The translations under genes and the position numbers were made by a program. Shown here piece after piece: positions 57,627 to 61,949 of a stretch of 64,000 nt of DNA (position 1 is its first letter; every line of letters begins with the position of its first letter). The notes beneath the pieces were generated by a model, which did no database searches, was not told the DNA's origin, and worked only from the letters and a program-made list of their open reading frames with translations. Source of the DNA: an uncultured Planctomycetales bacterium (GTDB lineage: Bacteria; Omnitrophota; Gorgyraeia; Gygaellales; Profunditerraquicolaceae); contig CAYHBB010000003.1 in the NCBI GenBank assembly GCA_964354795.1, forward strand, positions 5,887 through 69,886. The letters run 5' to 3'.

Positions 57627-57667
57627 CCTCCTTCTGGGGCGGGAAGGCGCGGGGCTACATTTTTTGT

Positions 57668-57694
57668 GTTAGATTTAGGCGGTTTTTACGTCTA
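57668..57694 (+). promoter_or_regulatory. GTTAGA-N15-CGTCTA ECF-like promoter motif upstream of the anti-sigma gene (copy 1 of 3)
   Basis: Same bipartite motif with identical 15-nt spacing at 61748-61774 and a GTTAAT-N17-CGTCTA variant at 61157-61185; CGTC-type -10 elements are typical of ECF sigma promoters. Confidence 0.35.
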
Positions 57695-57715
57695 TTTAGG
57701 TAGAGGGGGGTCATA

Positions 57716-58414
57716 ATGAACAAACTAGAAAATACCATAAAAGCGCTTTATAAAAGTTGGAAGCGCGGACTGCCGCCTGTAACCGGCGAACATCCGAATG
57801 AGGAGACCATGGCCTGTTTCCTTGAATCCAGGCTATCAACGCAGGAAAGCGAGCAGATTCAGGCTCATTTGGTCAGCTGCTGTGATTGCGCCAAGTCATT
57901 CGTGCTTGCTTTAGGCCTTAAGCCTGAGGAGCAGGACGTTCCGCAAGAACTCCTGAGTAAAATAAGAAATCTGATCATCCCGGCAAGCAAAGACACGCTT
58001 CTTGAGATAATCTTGCGGGCGAAAGAAAGGCTCTTTGAGGTGATTCATACAACAGGGGATATAATCGTAGGGCAGGAATTGGTCCCGGCGCCGGTATTAC
58101 GTAGCCGCGCAATTAAAGATTTCAAAGATGAGATCACTGTTTTGAAAGATTTTGCGGACTTGCGTGTTGAGGCAAAGCTGGAAAATAAGGGAGCTGGTAT
58201 TTTTGATATAAAGATCTGCGTAAAGGACAGACTTACGCAGAAATCACTTTCAGATGTGCGCATCAGCCTTTGCCGGGAGGATGTGGAGCTGGAATCTTTT
58301 CTTGCCGCAACAGGCATGGTGACATTTGAGCATGTCGCGTTAGGGACCTACCGCATTGAAATCGCCACAGTAGATCAAAAGTTCGCCACAGTCAGGCTGG
58401 ATATCAAGGGATAA
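57716..58414 (+). CDS. putative anti-sigma factor with N-terminal zf-HC2 zinc-finger motif
   Basis: AHLVSCCDCAKSF (H-x3-C-x2-C) about 50 residues from the N-terminus; located immediately after the ECF sigma gene. Confidence 0.55.
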   Translation: MNKLENTIKALYKSWKRGLPPVTGEHPNEETMACFLESRLSTQESEQIQAHLVSCCDCAKSFVLALGLKPEEQDVPQELLSKIRNLIIPASKDTLLEIILRAKERLFEVIHTTGDIIVGQELVPAPVLRSRAIKDFKDEITVLKDFADLRVEAKLENKGAGIFDIKICVKDRLTQKSLSDVRISLCREDVELESFLAATGMVTFEHVALGTYRIEIATVDQKFATVRLDIKG

Positions 58415-58418
58415 AGCT

Positions 58419-60416
58419 ATGCCGTCAAATAACGCGCTGGTTTTAGAAGTGTTCAAGCAGGATTCGCAGCTTTTAATGTGCCTTACTCGGCAGGATGATC
58501 AGGTTCCTACCTTAAAGCATTACGGCCGGCTTGCGGTGTCTTCTTCTGAGATCGAAAAGTTATGCCACGAGGCAATGTTTGCGGTAGATAAAACTGGGGA
58601 GAGCCTTAAGAAATCCGGTAGAATGCTTTGGGATCATTTGCTTACCAAGCAGGTTAAGGAAGGCCTTCTTGCTTATTCGGCCCGTAGCCTTACTCTTTCC
58701 CTTGATGAAGAATTGATCCATGTCCCCTGGGAACTGTTCTATGACGGACACGAATTTCTTTGTTTGCGCTATAGCATGGGAAGATTGGTAAGGACAAAGA
58801 CCCAGGCTACGCGCGTGCAGTACCGTTCTTTTTCGTCTATCCATAAAATGCTCATTCTGGCGAATCCTACCAACGACCTTAAAGACGCCTACCGGGAAGG
58901 CCTGAATATCAGGAATCAGTTTGACCGTAGGCGAGATAGTGTCAAGATTGATTTTAAATCTACGCATATTGATAAGCTTTATGTCAAGAAGAGCCTCAAG
59001 GATTATGAAATCGTACATTTTGCCGGGCACGCGGAATTTGATTCCAGTAACCCTAAGCACACCGGCTGGGTATTAAACGACGGTAGGTTTACTCCGGCTG
59101 ATATTTTGTCGCTTGGGGAGAATGTTTCCATGCCTAGCCTGGTATTCTCCAACGCTTGTTATTCAGCGCAATCATCCGGTTCCCGGGATTTTCATGAAAA
59201 GAATTACAGTTTGGCGTCAGCGTTTCTTTTGTCGGGAGTGCGGCATTATATTGGAGCTATACGCAGAGTCGAAGATCTGCAAAGCGAATCCTTTGCCCGG
59301 GAGTTTTACGCGAATTTATTATGCGGGAAGACGGTGGGGGAAAGCATGCGCTTAAGCCGACTTAAGCTGACCAAAGAGAGCGGGGCAGCGGCTCTTTCCT
59401 GGTCGAGCTATCTTTTATACGGCGATCCTGATTTTATCCTGTTTAAAGAAAGACATAAATCAAAGACAGCAAAGGCCGTAATCGGTGTTTCGTTTTATAA
59501 GAAATGGCTGATGATTTTTGCCGTGTGCGGCCTTCTGGCCGCAGCATGGGCGCTTTTTAATCGCTGGATGCCCACGGTCAACCCCCGGGCCTATGCCTTA
59601 TTTCTGCAGGCCCAAGAGTTGTTCGTAAACGGTAATAATGCAGCGGTTATCGCGTTATCAGCTGATATAATCTCGAGCGACCCCAAACTCCTTGCGACTT
59701 ATCTTCAGCTAGCCGAAACTTACACGCGCCTTGGGCAGCTGGATAACGCTCTGAAGACCTATTTCGATTATGCGCTGATGAGCGAAAAAAGGCGCGACGC
59801 AAAGTCTCTTGCCGCGGCATACACCGGTATAGGCTGGACTTATTTCCTGCGCAATGAGTATCCGTTAGCTTCCGATTTTTACAATAAAGCCATAAAACTT
59901 GCGCGTGAGAGTAATGACTTGCTTAACCAAGCTATAGCGCTGCGTAAATTAGCAGTGTTGGATAACGAGCAGGGAAATTACGATTTAGCTTTGGGGTATC
60001 TTCTTAAGAGCTCTGAGATCAACCGCGAGCGCCAGAGCGCTCATGAACACCGCTATAATCTGGCCTGCGATTATTTTGACATTGCTCTGGTTTTCAGCAA
60101 TAAAAACGATCTTGCTGCGGCAAAGGAATTCTACGCCAAGAGTCGCGCGATATTTGAGAAATTGCAGCTGAAAAAAGAATTAAGCGATTATTATTTTAAT
60201 CTCGGAGAGATCTATCAGGGCCAGAAAGAGTACCAGAAAGCGCTGGAGTATTTTCATAAGGGTCTGAAGATCGATATAGCCCAGGCAAATAAGCTGAATC
60301 TGGTAAGCGACTATGAGATGTTCGCGGATCTTTACCGGGAAATGGGAGATAGCGCAAAGTCTGGGGAGTATTCCCGCCTCAGTGAAGAATCCGGCCGACT
60401 TGAAAAACAGCCATAA
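58419..60416 (+). CDS. CHAT-domain (caspase-like) protein with a central TM helix and C-terminal TPR repeats
   Basis: CHAT His/Cys dyad context (HFAGHAEFD ... LVFSNACYSAQ); TM helix WLMIFAVCGLLAAAWALF; multiple TPR-like repeats (AETYTRLGQLDNALKTY, GEIYQGQKEYQKALEYF). Confidence 0.75.
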   Translation: MPSNNALVLEVFKQDSQLLMCLTRQDDQVPTLKHYGRLAVSSSEIEKLCHEAMFAVDKTGESLKKSGRMLWDHLLTKQVKEGLLAYSARSLTLSLDEELIHVPWELFYDGHEFLCLRYSMGRLVRTKTQATRVQYRSFSSIHKMLILANPTNDLKDAYREGLNIRNQFDRRRDSVKIDFKSTHIDKLYVKKSLKDYEIVHFAGHAEFDSSNPKHTGWVLNDGRFTPADILSLGENVSMPSLVFSNACYSAQSSGSRDFHEKNYSLASAFLLSGVRHYIGAIRRVEDLQSESFAREFYANLLCGKTVGESMRLSRLKLTKESGAAALSWSSYLLYGDPDFILFKERHKSKTAKAVIGVSFYKKWLMIFAVCGLLAAAWALFNRWMPTVNPRAYALFLQAQELFVNGNNAAVIALSADIISSDPKLLATYLQLAETYTRLGQLDNALKTYFDYALMSEKRRDAKSLAAAYTGIGWTYFLRNEYPLASDFYNKAIKLARESNDLLNQAIALRKLAVLDNEQGNYDLALGYLLKSSEINRERQSAHEHRYNLACDYFDIALVFSNKNDLAAAKEFYAKSRAIFEKLQLKKELSDYYFNLGEIYQGQKEYQKALEYFHKGLKIDIAQANKLNLVSDYEMFADLYREMGDSAKSGEYSRLSEESGRLEKQP

Positions 60417-60476
60417 TTGTGTTATACTTACAATGCAAAGTGACAATTTGACAATTTGGTGATCTACGCATGCACC

Positions 60477-60506
60477 AATGATCATTGGTGCATGCGGCCG
60501 ATGAAA
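60477..60506. repeat. 30-bp perfect palindrome CGCATGCACCAATGA|TCATTGGTGCATGCG
   Basis: read directly; the centre is TGATCA; candidate operator or RNA hairpin. Confidence 0.8.
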
Positions 60507-60655
60507 AGGCAAACTTCCGCCACAAAACGTGGCGGACGCGCCAAGTAGTATGGCGTGCAGGGTAACCTGAGGACGCAAAGTTACCTGTCCCTGACTTAAG
60601 TATTTCATGTTTAAGTCGGGGATAGAGGGACTGCCAAAGGATGAGACCTTGGGTT

Positions 60656-61103: not shown

Positions 61104-61156
61104 TACCCGGCCTTAGCCCCTTCCTTAAAAGGTATAGGAAGGGCTACCCCTGTGGG

Positions 61157-61185
61157 GTTAATAGGTAAGGCCGGTAATCCGTCTA
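61157..61185 (+). promoter_or_regulatory. GTTAAT-N17-CGTCTA ECF-like promoter motif upstream of 61249 (copy 2 of 3)
   Basis: see copy 1; embedded in a nested hairpin element at 61109..61172. Confidence 0.3.
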
Positions 61186-61248
61186 AGAAAGGACGCACCC
61201 GCGCATCCTATAAAGCGGGGTGCAGCTTTCTGCGCAAGGAGGTGTCAA

Positions 61249-61659
61249 ATGGTTAAGAAGGTAATCATCATATGTTTATTGATCCTGCCATTGGCGTTAT
61301 TGCTGGGTATGGGTCGCAGCGTGGTGCGGGCGCAAGGCGATGAGCCGGCGTTTAGCATCGACACTCTGGAGATGGACTACGCCAATTCTCCTGTTAACAA
61401 GTTCGGCCGCGGGGTGATCAATACCGCTACCTGCTGGGCGGAAGTGCCGGCAGAAATAGCCCGCGTATCTAAGGACAGGGACCCCGCTTTAGGATGGACC
61501 CTTGGCTTGGCTCAAGGTACGATCAATGCTATTATACGCGGAGCGGTCGGAATATTCGACACTCTGACTTGTGTAGTGCCGCCGTATAATAAGCCTGAGA
61601 TGCAGCCGGAATACGCGCTCTCAAGCGCTGACGAAGCTTTTAAAGCATATCTCTGGTAA
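61249..61659 (+). CDS. 136-aa secreted protein of unknown function
   Basis: signal peptide VIIICLLILPLALLLGMGRSVVRAQG, AAGGAGG RBS, two Cys. Confidence 0.5.
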   Translation: MVKKVIIICLLILPLALLLGMGRSVVRAQGDEPAFSIDTLEMDYANSPVNKFGRGVINTATCWAEVPAEIARVSKDRDPALGWTLGLAQGTINAIIRGAVGIFDTLTCVVPPYNKPEMQPEYALSSADEAFKAYLW

Positions 61660-61672
61660 TTCCTCTCATAAT

Positions 61673-61712
61673 AAAGGGCGCCTTGATTATTTTCTTTCAA
61701 GGTGCCCTTTGC
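61673..61712 (+). terminator. terminator-like hairpin: 14-bp stem AAAGGGCGCCTTGA / TCAAGGTGCCCTTT (one G-U pair) with a 10-nt loop
   Basis: lies 14 nt after the stop of the 136-aa gene; the 3' arm ends in CCCTTTG, with only a weak U-tract. Confidence 0.35.
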
Positions 61713-61747
61713 CTATCCTAAGACAAATAAAAACTTAAAATATTTTC

Positions 61748-61774
61748 GTTAGATTTAGCCTCCTGATACGTCTA
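61748..61774 (+). promoter_or_regulatory. GTTAGA-N15-CGTCTA ECF-like promoter motif upstream of the BNR-repeat gene (copy 3 of 3)
   Basis: about 45 nt (61741-61785) are near-identical to 57661-57705. Confidence 0.35.
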
Positions 61775-61949
61775 TTGTAGTGAGGACATAAGGCCCTTCC
61801 TTTATCGGTTGGGAAGGCCTACCCCCGTGGGGTAACTTATGGAGCCCTATGAATGGGCGACATAAGTTATCTGTCCGAACTATCCAGCCGAAGGCTGGAA
61901 GTGAGGGCATGATCAATTTGTTGGGCTATTTAAAAAAAGGAGGGCACAA

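Follow-up and report, generated by a model that had tools for sequence, protein, structure and literature searches.

Judged by sequence conservation, the two copies of GTTAGATTT-N12-CGTCTATT in the 64,000-nt window (the whole stretch of DNA analysed here) genuinely represent a promoter motif that is kept throughout Omnitrophota, an uncultivated phylum. We consider it likely, with a probability of roughly 0.7, that the gene at 57024-57626 encodes the ECF-type sigma factor that reads this promoter and would govern a local circuit together with a wider regulon. The comparative data also indicate that the motif is a phylum-wide alternative-sigma promoter whose regulon is far larger than the original prediction proposed. 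No published description of the predicted Omnitrophota sigma/promoter system was found.

A conserved two-block promoter motif

The first copy, P1 (57668-57696, + strand; GTTAGA at 57668-57673 and CGTCTA at 57689-57694), lies 21 nt upstream of the start codon of an anti-sigma gene, and the second, P2 (61748-61776, + strand; GTTAGA at 61748-61753 and CGTCTA at 61769-61774), lies 175 nt upstream of a gene for a BNR-propeller protein. Both contain GTTAGATTTAG-N9-ACGTCTATT without a mismatch (exact over 20 positions), a pattern that occurs twice in the window against 0.00 matches expected from 100 shuffles, and P1 and P2 are the only sites in the 64 kb that match GTTAGA-N15-CGTCTATT with two or fewer mismatches. 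The original prediction had listed these two sites and a third, and we recovered the coordinates and sequences of all three as described, as well as their distances from the start codons (21 nt for the anti-sigma gene, 63 nt for a 136-aa gene and 175 nt for the BNR gene). Its description of P1 and P2 as near-identical over about 45 nt was overstated, as the conserved part of their alignment comprises only an 11-nt and a 10-nt block, with 9 nt of non-conserved spacer in between, and a T-rich stretch upstream. Two blocks flanking a free spacer form a promoter-like pattern and not a repeat. The proposed ECF-type behaviour also holds, in that a -35-like block is followed at fixed spacing by a CGTC -10, which is typical of ECF promoters. 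The -35 block GTTAGA is itself unlike the common GGAAC or GAAC, an observation that counts against an ECF-sigma reading.

Counting sites with no more than one mismatch, about 1 Mb of related DNA contains 150 with a GTTAGA-to-CGTC gap of 15 and none with a gap of 12-14 or 16-18. The consensus tGTTAGATTt-N12-CGTCTATT, with variable spacer sequence, recurs in ten loci that were reached independently of the motif, through sigma homologs of 40-78% identity. It precedes the anti-sigma gene in the window and in L002, L003, L004, L006, L007, L008 and L010, and the BNR gene in the window and in L001, L002, L004, L007, L008, L010 and L011; counting all loci other than the window, the motif stands upstream of anti-sigma homologs in about 20 and of BNR homologs in 13-16. 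This retention before both genes across Omnitrophota agrees with the earlier proposal that the motif is tied to the adjacent sigma/anti-sigma pair. In L001 and L011 the sigma and anti-sigma genes overlap without an internal promoter, and no motif was found at the L009 locus. When a motif search was run on 185,579 species genomes, it picked out 117 stretches, and Omnitrophota-type MAGs were the source of 109 of them. A same-strand ORF start with a Shine-Dalgarno sequence follows within 400 nt at 127 of the 143 Omnitrophota-type sites (within 35 nt at 69 of the 127) and at none of the eight sites in other phyla. Because the loci from this search (L012-L128) were picked by an exact 17-base pattern, the resulting list of regulon members is partial and biased.

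The sigma locus and its predicted circuit

The 200-aa product of the sigma gene (57024-57626, + strand) scores 57.8 bits against the TIGR02937 sigma70-ECF model (cutoff 42.9) and matches Pfam Sigma70_r2; its nearest solved sequence is SigW (5wuq), and the named sequences among its 43 homologs are from Omnitrophica/Omnitrophota. An extended -10 promoter, TGGTATAAT (57006-57014, + strand), ends 9 nt upstream of the ATG at 57024, which has no Shine-Dalgarno sequence. The earlier prediction of a leaderless sigma mRNA, which follows from an extended -10 so near the ATG, is supported by the conservation of TGnTATAAT 6-9 nt upstream of the ATG in L001, L002, L004, L007, L008, L009 and L010. As had also been pointed out, the motif lies between the sigma and anti-sigma genes, and none of the sigma genes in the loci examined has a + strand copy upstream of it. 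A promoter upstream of the sigma factor's own gene is the usual basis for linking a motif to an ECF sigma, and the lack of such autoregulation counts against assigning the motif to the sigma factor encoded at 57024-57626.

The sigma/anti-sigma spacer of the window contains a hairpin followed by a U-run (57624-57665, + strand; -14.8 kcal/mol), a possible terminator or attenuator that is not significant on its own (z = -0.48). L002, L003 and L004 have analogous hairpins; L006, L008 and L010 lack one, and in these three the sigma stop codon lies inside GTTAG. In the window the hairpin seems to be inserted sequence, by which the -35 block was both moved and doubled (TTTCGTTAG at the stop codon of the sigma gene versus GTGTTAGATTT).

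The next gene (57716-58414, + strand) encodes a predicted soluble ZAS-type anti-sigma factor of 232 aa, with an N-terminal zinc motif C-x16-H-x3-C-x2-C, a linker of high conservation (GQELVPAPVLRSR..FKDE) and a beta-sandwich at the C-terminus. All of 20 homologs keep H51, C55 and C58, zf-HC2 is matched by 18 of 20 family members, and the top PDB match of the family profile is the DdvA anti-sigma domain (8rlz, E = 0.008). A sigma homolog lies directly upstream in 27/27 loci. The third gene of the triad, always, encodes a 665-aa CHAT-TPR protein (58419-60416, + strand; Pfam CHAT, E = 7.6e-35, plus TPR families), and 17 homologs retain its dyad motifs, HFAGH and FSNaC, as well as its only hydrophobic helix, near residue 375. 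It is predicted to be a membrane caspase-like protease with its CHAT domain in the cytoplasm.

P2 lies upstream of the gene for a secreted 527-aa BNR/Sortilin-type beta-propeller protein (61950-63533, + strand; Pfam Sortilin-Vps10 and BNR), for which 17 homologous loci were found. The mRNA would begin with a conserved leader hairpin, UAGUGAGGAC ... GUCCGAACUAUCC (61778-61882, + strand), whose alignment (n=10) contains 17 pairs, seven of them with compensatory changes. In the window this hairpin is interrupted by copy B (61793-61833) of a 43-nt REP/MITE-like element. The element amounts to 50 copies, of which two are in the window, one is in L010 and 47 are in 41 metagenome stretches, some in tandem.

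In the circuit that we propose, transcription of the sigma gene from its housekeeping-type extended -10 into a leaderless mRNA would make sigma constitutively available. P1, downstream of the sigma gene, would drive the genes for the ZAS-type anti-sigma factor and the CHAT-TPR protease, and active sigma would induce its own inhibitor in a negative-feedback and reset loop; P2 would drive the secreted BNR protein through its structured leader. For activation we can only infer that the extracytoplasmic TPR domain of the membrane protein senses a signal and that the cytoplasmic caspase-like domain then cleaves the anti-sigma factor, possibly in the invariant PAPVLRSR linker, to free the sigma. Such cleavage is suggested by gene order and by analogy with two precedents in which an ECF sigma is set free by a CHAT protease, Csx29/Csx30/CASP-sigma (PMC10028731) and DdvA/DdvS (PMC11506125).

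Extent of the regulon and alternative readings

In Omnitrophota-type MAGs the motif precedes recA-recX, comEA-comEC, comM and radC, as well as anti-repressor (ORF6N/Bro-N), Y1-transposase, DNA-methylase, restriction-modification and toxin-antitoxin genes; an integrase gene is among the mobile-element genes with the motif upstream, and viral contigs also carry it. Pfam confirmed RecA, RecX, ComEC, HHH_3 (ComEA-like), Mg_chelatase (ComM-type), RadC, RecQ, ORF6N, Bro-N, Y1_Tnp, N6_N4_Mtase and TdeIII among the downstream families. Several single MAGs have the motif before two or more regulon genes, as in MHGH (comEA-comEC and recA) and JAPLLN (comEA/EC, recA and spoVG). By its apparent content, the regulon resembles a response centred on DNA uptake, recombination and mobile elements, much as competence or SOS regulons are. 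A true competence regulon would be expected to include dprA, ssb and pilus genes, none of which was seen among the sampled motif sites.

The small local regulon originally envisaged, with three promoters of which GTTAAT-N17-CGTCTAAG would serve the 136-aa gene, is hard to reconcile with the presence of the same promoter before such genes in many genomes, and we regard it as the least probable reading. The third site (61157-61185, + strand) is intergenic and on the coding strand, and the loose pattern GTTARW-N14-18-CGTCTA does have three matches against 0.18 expected. However, its blocks (GTTAAT at 61157-61162, CGTCTA at 61180-61185) are 17 rather than 15 nt apart, a gap never used in the motif family, and neither the TTT that should follow the first block nor the TT that should follow CGTCTA is present. 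Its GTTAAT is supplied by the 3' end of copy A of the 43-nt element (61116-61158, + strand), which is inserted in a hairpin loop between CCGGCCTTA (61107-61115) and TAAGGCCGG (61166-61174). In L001, L010 and L154 the orthologous spacers lack CGTCTA, and the site is not conserved in these loci or in L002, where only 13 nt separate the 84-aa and 136-aa genes. The gap, the repeat-derived GTTAAT and the non-conserved CGTCTA speak against it as a promoter of this family; P1 and P2 stand as copies of the conserved motif, and we judge the third site to be a chance match. The 136-aa gene (61249-61659, + strand), which encodes a secreted protein of the exosortase-associated TIGR04073 family (70.4 bits, cutoff 50), is accordingly not supported as a target of the sigma. 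It is the last gene of an operon, outside the sigma regulon, that is headed by a sigma-70-type promoter, TTGAAA-17-TATACT with TG (60400-60428, + strand), whose TGyTATAyT is kept in L001, L002 and L010. This promoter is followed by a c-di-GMP-I riboswitch aptamer (60542-60638, + strand; Rfam RF01051, 37.3 bits, gathering score 35) with orthologous matches in the same three loci, an intrinsic terminator (60643-60699; fold z = -4.5) and ORFs of 37 aa (60720-60833) and 84 aa (60849-61103), and a strong terminator (61672-61710; fold z = -6.5) lies downstream of the 136-aa gene.

It is also improbable that a DNA-binding regulator uses the motif as its operator, or that the motif marks the conserved terminus of some dispersed mobile element. 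Y1 transposases, ORF6N/Bro-N proteins, an integrase and methylases encoded downstream of the motif, its occurrence on viral contigs and the true dispersed repeat of 43 nt within the same region would suit such an origin. Yet the motif consists of two short conserved blocks around a free-sequence spacer of fixed length, shows a CGTC -10 and no inverted-repeat symmetry, keeps a single orientation relative to the downstream gene and has flanks that differ between different genes; about half of the sites are followed 12-35 nt further on by a Shine-Dalgarno sequence and start codon, and the downstream genes include the single-copy core genes recA, comM and comEC. A somewhat stronger, though still unlikely, alternative accepts the motif as a true alternative-sigma promoter and assigns it to a different sigma encoded elsewhere, with the anti-sigma/CHAT operon and the BNR gene as mere members of that regulon. 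The position of the promoter, not upstream of the adjacent sigma gene, and the retention of the triad without an internal promoter in L001, L009 and L011 would fit this alternative. Against it, the anti-sigma gene is the commonest single target of the motif (21-22 sites) and is preceded by the sigma gene at every locus, no other sigma paralog occurs in about 1 Mb of DNA around motif sites, and a sigma-controlled anti-sigma gene is a known design. We therefore favour the adjacent ECF-type sigma as the probable reader.

Comparison with known systems

Like the classical ECF/ZAS pairs, such as SigW-RsiW of B. subtilis and SigR-RsrA of S. coelicolor, the Omnitrophota system combines a sigma of about 200 aa with only sigma-2 and sigma-4 regions, an adjacent anti-sigma factor with an H-x3-C-x2-C zinc motif, and a conserved -35 block, fixed spacer and CGTC -10. 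Unlike in these pairs, the promoter lies downstream of the sigma gene, so positive autoregulation is not expected; the sigma gene carries an extended -10 of housekeeping type and is predicted to yield a leaderless mRNA, the -35 is GTTAGATTT and not GGAAC-like, and the anti-sigma is soluble with a beta-sandwich C-terminus. FliA-FlgM has negative feedback because transcription of the anti-sigma gene depends on the very sigma that the anti-sigma inhibits. Our system would share this arrangement, but it involves a different sigma group, and FlgM is removed by secretion, not proteolysis.

The streptococcal ComX (sigma-X) competence regulon and the LexA/SOS regulons, with their LexA-controlled anti-repressors, offer a functional comparison only, in that one switch would act on comEA-comEC, recA, radC, DNA methylases, genes of the prophage anti-repressor type and a ComM-type helicase. 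ComX belongs to another sigma family and has another promoter (there is no cin-box here), dprA, ssb and pilus genes were not seen among the sampled sites, and the control module, a ZAS anti-sigma and a CHAT protease, is unlike either.

In the DdvS-DdvA system of Myxococcus xanthus, an ECF sigma is paired with a transmembrane ZAS anti-sigma that carries a periplasmic TPR-CHAT domain (PMC11506125). Both systems bring an ECF sigma together with a ZAS domain, with TPR repeats and with a caspase-like protease of the CHAT family, and within the PDB it is the ZAS domain of DdvA that best matches the Omnitrophota anti-sigma profile. In contrast to DdvA, the ZAS and CHAT-TPR proteins are encoded here by separate genes, and the domain order CHAT-TM-TPR leads to the prediction of a cytoplasmic CHAT domain; DdvS controls a CBASS/CRISPR island, and the regulon predicted here comprises recombination, DNA-uptake and mobile-element genes instead. 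In the type III-E CRISPR 'Craspase', Csx29 (TPR-CHAT) cuts Csx30, and CASP-sigma is released (PMC10028731). Our sigma matches the CAS_III-E_sigma model only weakly (36.9, far under the cutoff of 100), none of the loci showed Cas7-11 or CRISPR, and the inhibitor is of the ZAS type rather than Csx30 and the protease membrane-anchored. Nevertheless, both systems place a CHAT-family protease gene beside an ECF sigma and its inhibitor, and proteolysis of the inhibitor, the activating step in Craspase, may play the same part here.

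Organization of the sigma locus

Three genes lie next to one another on the forward strand, encoding a sigma factor (57024-57626, 200 aa), a 232-aa protein (57716-58414) and a CHAT+TPR protein (58419-60416, 665 aa). Further along this strand come two short ORFs (37 and 84 aa), the gene of a 136-aa protein (61249-61659) and a BNR/Sortilin-type gene (61950-63533, 527 aa). Eleven related loci (L001-L011) were retrieved through sigma homologs, with identities from 78% down to 40% and without reference to the promoter motif; the order of sigma, ~232-aa and CHAT-TPR genes is conserved in them, and the BNR-propeller gene usually lies 1-6 kb downstream of this triad. 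The anatomy of the triad and of its promoters is conserved. A total of 43 sigma homologs were found at E ≤ 1e-5, and the named ones are labelled 'Candidatus Omnitrophica/Omnitrophota'. The region upstream of the sigma gene (~53700-56920 in the window, and further upstream) carries radical-SAM/SPASM, B12-binding radical-SAM, PqqD-like and glycosyltransferase genes together with an O-antigen ligase-like gene (Wzy_C) on the opposite strand; it is syntenic in the upstream regions of the close relatives L001, L002 and L010 and looks like a RiPP-type or surface-polysaccharide cluster. On the 3' side of the BNR gene, within 63573-63832, a near-consensus sigma-70 promoter (TTTACA-16-TATAAT) precedes a gene for a 70-aa LITAF-like zinc-ribbon membrane protein; L002 likewise has this small gene after BNR.

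The sigma protein scores 57.8 bits against TIGR02937 (cutoff 42.9) over residues 17-192, matches Pfam Sigma70_r2, has SigW as its nearest PDB sequence, and has the size and domain content of an ECF factor (~170-220 aa, with sigma-2 and sigma-4 regions only). Its own promoter element, TGGTATAAT, ends 9 nt 5' of the ATG with no Shine-Dalgarno sequence in between, and TGnTATAAT is kept 6-9 nt 5' of the ATG in L001, L002, L004, L007, L008, L009 and L010. This conservation supports the original prediction that the sigma mRNA is leaderless. The prediction had also placed a motif copy between the sigma and anti-sigma genes rather than upstream of sigma, and this arrangement holds across the group, as no copy faces any sigma gene. 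Positive autoregulation of ECF sigma genes is common without being universal; here, no forward-strand motif copy was found 5' of sigma in any locus, and TGnTATAAT stands there instead. In L006 (1613), L008 (10594) and L010 (6390), the -35 block (CGTTAG) contains the sigma stop codon, TAG, as part of its GTTAG. In the corresponding region of the window (57618-57676) and in L002, L003 and L004, a hairpin with a U-run appears to have been inserted between sigma and anti-sigma and the -35 block duplicated around the insert; the hairpin (z = -0.48) is not statistically distinctive on its own. This duplication suggests a route by which the intergenic terminator may have arisen. L003 has two such hairpin and U-run units.

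As a single sequence, the 232-aa protein returned nothing useful from Pfam, NCBIfam or phmmer-PDB searches. Across 20 homologs, however, H51, C55 and C58 (H-x3-C-x2-C) are invariant and an upstream Cys is mostly conserved. A profile of the N-terminus searched against the PDB matched best the ZAS domain of DdvA (8rlz, E = 0.008), with full-length DdvA and RslA ranking next, and Pfam zf-HC2 is matched by 18 of the 20 homologs. The protein has no hydrophobic helix, and a near-invariant segment, GD.l.GQElvPApvLRSR.i..FKdE, connects the ZAS domain with a C-terminal beta-sandwich. A sigma homolog directly precedes the gene in 27 of 27 loci. Together with the zinc motif and the profile matches, this position marks the protein as the probable cognate anti-sigma factor; no other sigma paralogs were found in the motif-bearing DNA. 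The CHAT protein keeps the HFAGH and FSNaC dyad motifs, and its one hydrophobic helix, near residue 375, separates the N-terminal CHAT domain from the C-terminal TPR domain. As there is no signal peptide, the CHAT domain is predicted to be cytoplasmic and the TPR domain extracytoplasmic.

The probable promoter motif, its distribution and its putative targets

The motif sites before the anti-sigma gene (P1, 57668-57696) and before the BNR gene (P2, 61748-61776) had been described as near-identical over 45 nt; their alignment instead consists of two conserved blocks flanking a non-conserved spacer. P1 and P2 match without mismatch over GTTAGATTTAG-N9-ACGTCTATT, where shuffles expect 0, and they are the only sites in the 64-kb window with GTTAGA-N15-CGTCTATT when two mismatches are tolerated. 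The predicted promoter layout, in which a CGTC-type -10 stands at a set distance from a conserved -35 block, was borne out as GTTAGATTT-N12-CGTCTATT, with a 15-nt gap exclusively. The consensus tGTTAGATTt-N12-CGTCTATT lies 5' of the 232-aa gene in the window, L002, L003, L004, L006, L007, L008 and L010, and 5' of the BNR gene in the window, L001, L002, L004, L007, L008, L010 and L011. Additional copies in L004 precede a GAF-PAS histidine kinase gene and, on the opposite strand, a Y1 transposase gene.

A scan for exact GTTAGATTT-N12-CGTCTATT in one genome per species (185,579 species) returned at least 117 stretches. Among the matches listed, 109 of 117 stretches belong to Omnitrophota or to similar MAGs that bear the label 'uncultured Planctomycetales' or 'bacterium' and have the same anti-sigma and BNR genes, and 8 of 117 belong to other phyla. 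In ~1 Mb of DNA from the matches listed, 150 sites with a gap of 15 were found at ≤ 1 mismatch over 14 core positions, compared with 0 sites for gaps of 12-14 and 16-18. Among the matches listed, 127 of 143 Omnitrophota-type sites have a Shine-Dalgarno-preceded ORF on the same strand ≤ 400 nt downstream (≤ 35 nt away in 69 of the 127), whereas none of the 8 sites in other phyla has such an ORF within 400 nt.

The fixed gap, the same-strand ORFs and the distribution together fit a promoter. A dispersed repeat or a symmetric operator would not account for them. A role of the motif as housekeeping promoter of the phylum was rejected, since both the sigma gene and the riboswitch operon have conserved canonical promoters of the TTGACA/TATAAT type, and ribosomal and rRNA genes are absent among the 150 targets in the matches listed. 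We regard the motif as a conserved alternative-sigma promoter of Omnitrophota with a probability of roughly 85%, and the sigma factor encoded beside P1 is likely to be its cognate reader. The exact promoter also occurs in 18 viral contigs from IMG/VR (L170-L187, for example L178 at 3541-3569). A phage-encoded sigma factor as the reader was rejected, no sigma homolog having been found in these 18 stretches. Full consensus flanks and a Shine-Dalgarno sequence are present in 17 of the 18, and the viral promoter precedes a 46-58-aa ORF (..KKLIEETKRIIxWRLFLxECGL..), which in L178 adjoins an integrase gene and a CI/Cro-like region. As these contigs lack a sigma homolog, it appears that a promoter of the host is used by phages or prophages.

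Downstream ORFs were clustered and representatives were checked by Pfam and PHROGs. Among the matches listed, the targets are the anti-sigma gene followed by CHAT-TPR (21-22 sites), ORF6N anti-repressor-type proteins (17-21), the BNR protein (14-16), Y1 (IS200/RAYT-like) transposases (14), ComEA-like HhH proteins followed by ComEC (Competence + DUF4131; 11-13), RecA followed by RecX and AlaS (8-9), a ComM-type Mg-chelatase-like ATPase (7) and RadC (3). Rarer targets among the matches listed are RecQ, Bro-N proteins, N6/N4 DNA methylases (one with a TdeIII endonuclease), Gp49/CopG and other toxin-antitoxin genes, 23S-rRNA-IVP four-helix proteins, SpoVG, an integrase and a CBM96 protein. Some MAGs have the exact motif at several of these genes, before comEA-comEC and recA in MHGH, before comEA/EC, recA and spoVG in JAPLLN, and before BNR, radC, recA and a methylase gene in JAGUUJ. 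These targets are those of exact-pattern sites among the matches listed, so the regulon may be larger; at these sites, no dprA, ssb or type IV pilus/pseudopilus genes were seen. As expected of a competence-like regulon, comEA/comEC share the promoter with recA, comM and radC, all Pfam-confirmed families. We would give even odds to a role of this kind, in which competence genes and an SOS-like induction of anti-repressors, methylases and transposases form one output.

The riboswitch operon, an inserted repeat and the BNR leader

The 136-aa protein, a member of the exosortase-associated TIGR04073 family, is preceded, in this order, by a conserved extended -10 promoter of sigma-70 type, a riboswitch of the c-di-GMP-I class and an intrinsic terminator (window 60400-60699; L001 13374-13452; L002 13681-13820; L010 9425-9505). 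RF01051 scores 37.3 in the window, 45.0 in L001 and 38.7 in L002 against a gathering threshold of 35, and RF03168 scores 67.8 against 65.9 in L010; the riboswitch, which thus belongs to these families, is followed by a terminator hairpin (z = -4.5) as its putative expression platform. The unit heads the 37-aa Arg/His-rich ORF, the 84-aa ORF and the 136-aa gene, and a strong terminator (z = -6.5) lies between the 136-aa gene and P2. In L007 and L011, PilZ or MshEN genes occupy the place of this operon, so that a c-di-GMP-linked module adjoins the sigma locus across the group.

The original prediction had counted GTTAAT-N17-CGTCTA at 61157-61185, upstream of the 136-aa gene, as a third promoter, and had named membership of a dispersed repeat as a ground for rejection. 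This site has a 17-nt gap and no flanking T's. The spacer between the 84-aa and 136-aa genes has a length of 96, 13 and 57 nt in L001, L002 and L010, respectively; in L001 and L010 it holds a plain hairpin, CCGGCCTTA-AAGG-TGAGGCCGG, followed by TATTCCGCTTCTGCGG, with neither GTTAAT nor CGTCTA. In the window, the loop of that hairpin is occupied by a 43-nt element, GCCCCTTCC-N11-GGAAGGGCTACCCCTGTGGGGT (61116-61158), whose final bases supply the GTTAAT. The element is indeed a dispersed repeat: its core occurs in 47 copies in 41 metagenome stretches (L129-L169), making 50 with the two in the window and one in L010 (minus strand, near 3262). Copies follow TTA/TAAG, some form tandem arrays of two or three, and several occupy this hairpin in other genomes, likewise without CGTCTA. 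With a repeat-derived GTTAAT, an unconserved CGTCTA, the wrong gap and a 136-aa gene that has its own promoter, the third site is best taken as a chance product of insertion, and the case warns annotators that a small inserted repeat can create look-alike promoter sites. The element is REP/MITE-like, with two hairpins (GsCCCTTCC..GGAAGGs and ACCCCyGTGGGGT), and it inserts in hairpin loops without visible duplication. As a speculation, it might be mobilized by the Y1 (RAYT-like) transposases under the sigma promoter (14 loci among the matches listed).

The second copy of the element (61793-61833) breaks into the BNR leader. No Rfam family was found at E ≤ 10 for the structured region common to the two 5' regions, and a riboswitch-like three-way junction in this shared region is contradicted by the plain hairpin at orthologous loci and by the metagenome scan, which finds a dispersed, sometimes tandem element. 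The leader itself begins with a conserved 5'-terminal hairpin (AAGUGAGGRC ... GYCCGAACUUAUCCC), with a second hairpin just before the Shine-Dalgarno sequence (window 61778-61882; L002 15288; L003 10716; L004 17093; L008 14462; also L035, L056, L053 and L163). In 10 sequences, 7 of its 17 predicted pairs show compensatory changes, and no Rfam family matches it. This structure is found after the sigma promoter ahead of BNR, anti-sigma, ORF6N and recA genes, and after other promoters too, and is possibly an mRNA-stabilizing or regulatory 5' stem-loop. Its GAACTT was rejected as a further ECF -35, since no -10 of constant spacing lies downstream of it; this segment also pairs with the 5' end of the leader.

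A proposed switch and its relation to known systems

To our knowledge, Omnitrophota have no cultured representatives, and the literature searched yielded no published description of their transcriptional regulation (sigma, ECF, competence). The present results provide a precise promoter consensus with a candidate cognate sigma factor. The putative regulon ties DNA uptake, recombination and mobile-element genes together, and its state could be read in metatranscriptomes. ECF sigma factors, ZAS anti-sigma factors, CHAT proteases and c-di-GMP riboswitches are all known kinds. Three features appear to lack a description in the literature searched, namely the split CHAT architecture with its membrane anchor, the position of the promoter behind the sigma gene, and the content of the regulon; nothing relevant on CHAT was found in the ECF reclassification paper.

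We propose that sigma is made constitutively from its leaderless mRNA and then held by the ZAS anti-sigma. A signal sensed by the TPR domain would lead the CHAT domain to cleave the anti-sigma and release sigma, and freed sigma would transcribe the anti-sigma and CHAT-TPR genes from P1, restoring inhibition. Such an arrangement, with constitutive leaderless sigma and inducible anti-sigma, would be an ECF module for pure negative feedback. The cleavage step, argued by analogy, has a somewhat less than even chance of being correct. More tentative still is the idea that the triad, activated by anti-sigma cleavage, acts as master regulator of a joint competence and SOS-like programme in Omnitrophota, covering ComEA-ComEC uptake, RecA-RecX/ComM/RadC recombination, restriction-modification, and transposase and prophage anti-repressor activation, with temperate phages and small mobile elements sensing the state through the promoter. 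If true, this would be a hitherto undescribed way in which an ECF sigma factor controls both natural transformation and the induction of mobile elements.

The predicted feedback, in which sigma drives expression of its own anti-sigma, would resemble that of FliA-FlgM. For CHAT-driven sigma release there is precedent in Csx29, which cleaves the sigma inhibitor Csx30 (PMC10028731), and in DdvA, a TPR-CHAT anti-sigma (PMC11506125). The present locus differs from both. The window sigma scores 36.9 bits against the type III-E CASP-sigma model NF041236 (cutoff 100), and no cas genes (Cas7-11 association) were found among the called genes of the 11 loci. In DdvS/DdvA, a transmembrane helix joins the cytoplasmic ZAS domain to the periplasmic TPR-CHAT region within a single polypeptide, whereas here every locus encodes ZAS (57716-58414 in the window) and CHAT-TM-TPR (58419-60416) in two different ORFs, and CHAT is N-terminal to the transmembrane helix. 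By analogy with DdvA and Craspase, the triad may thus represent a third, split architecture among the few ECF sigma systems controlled by CHAT proteases, lying outside a CRISPR/CBASS context.
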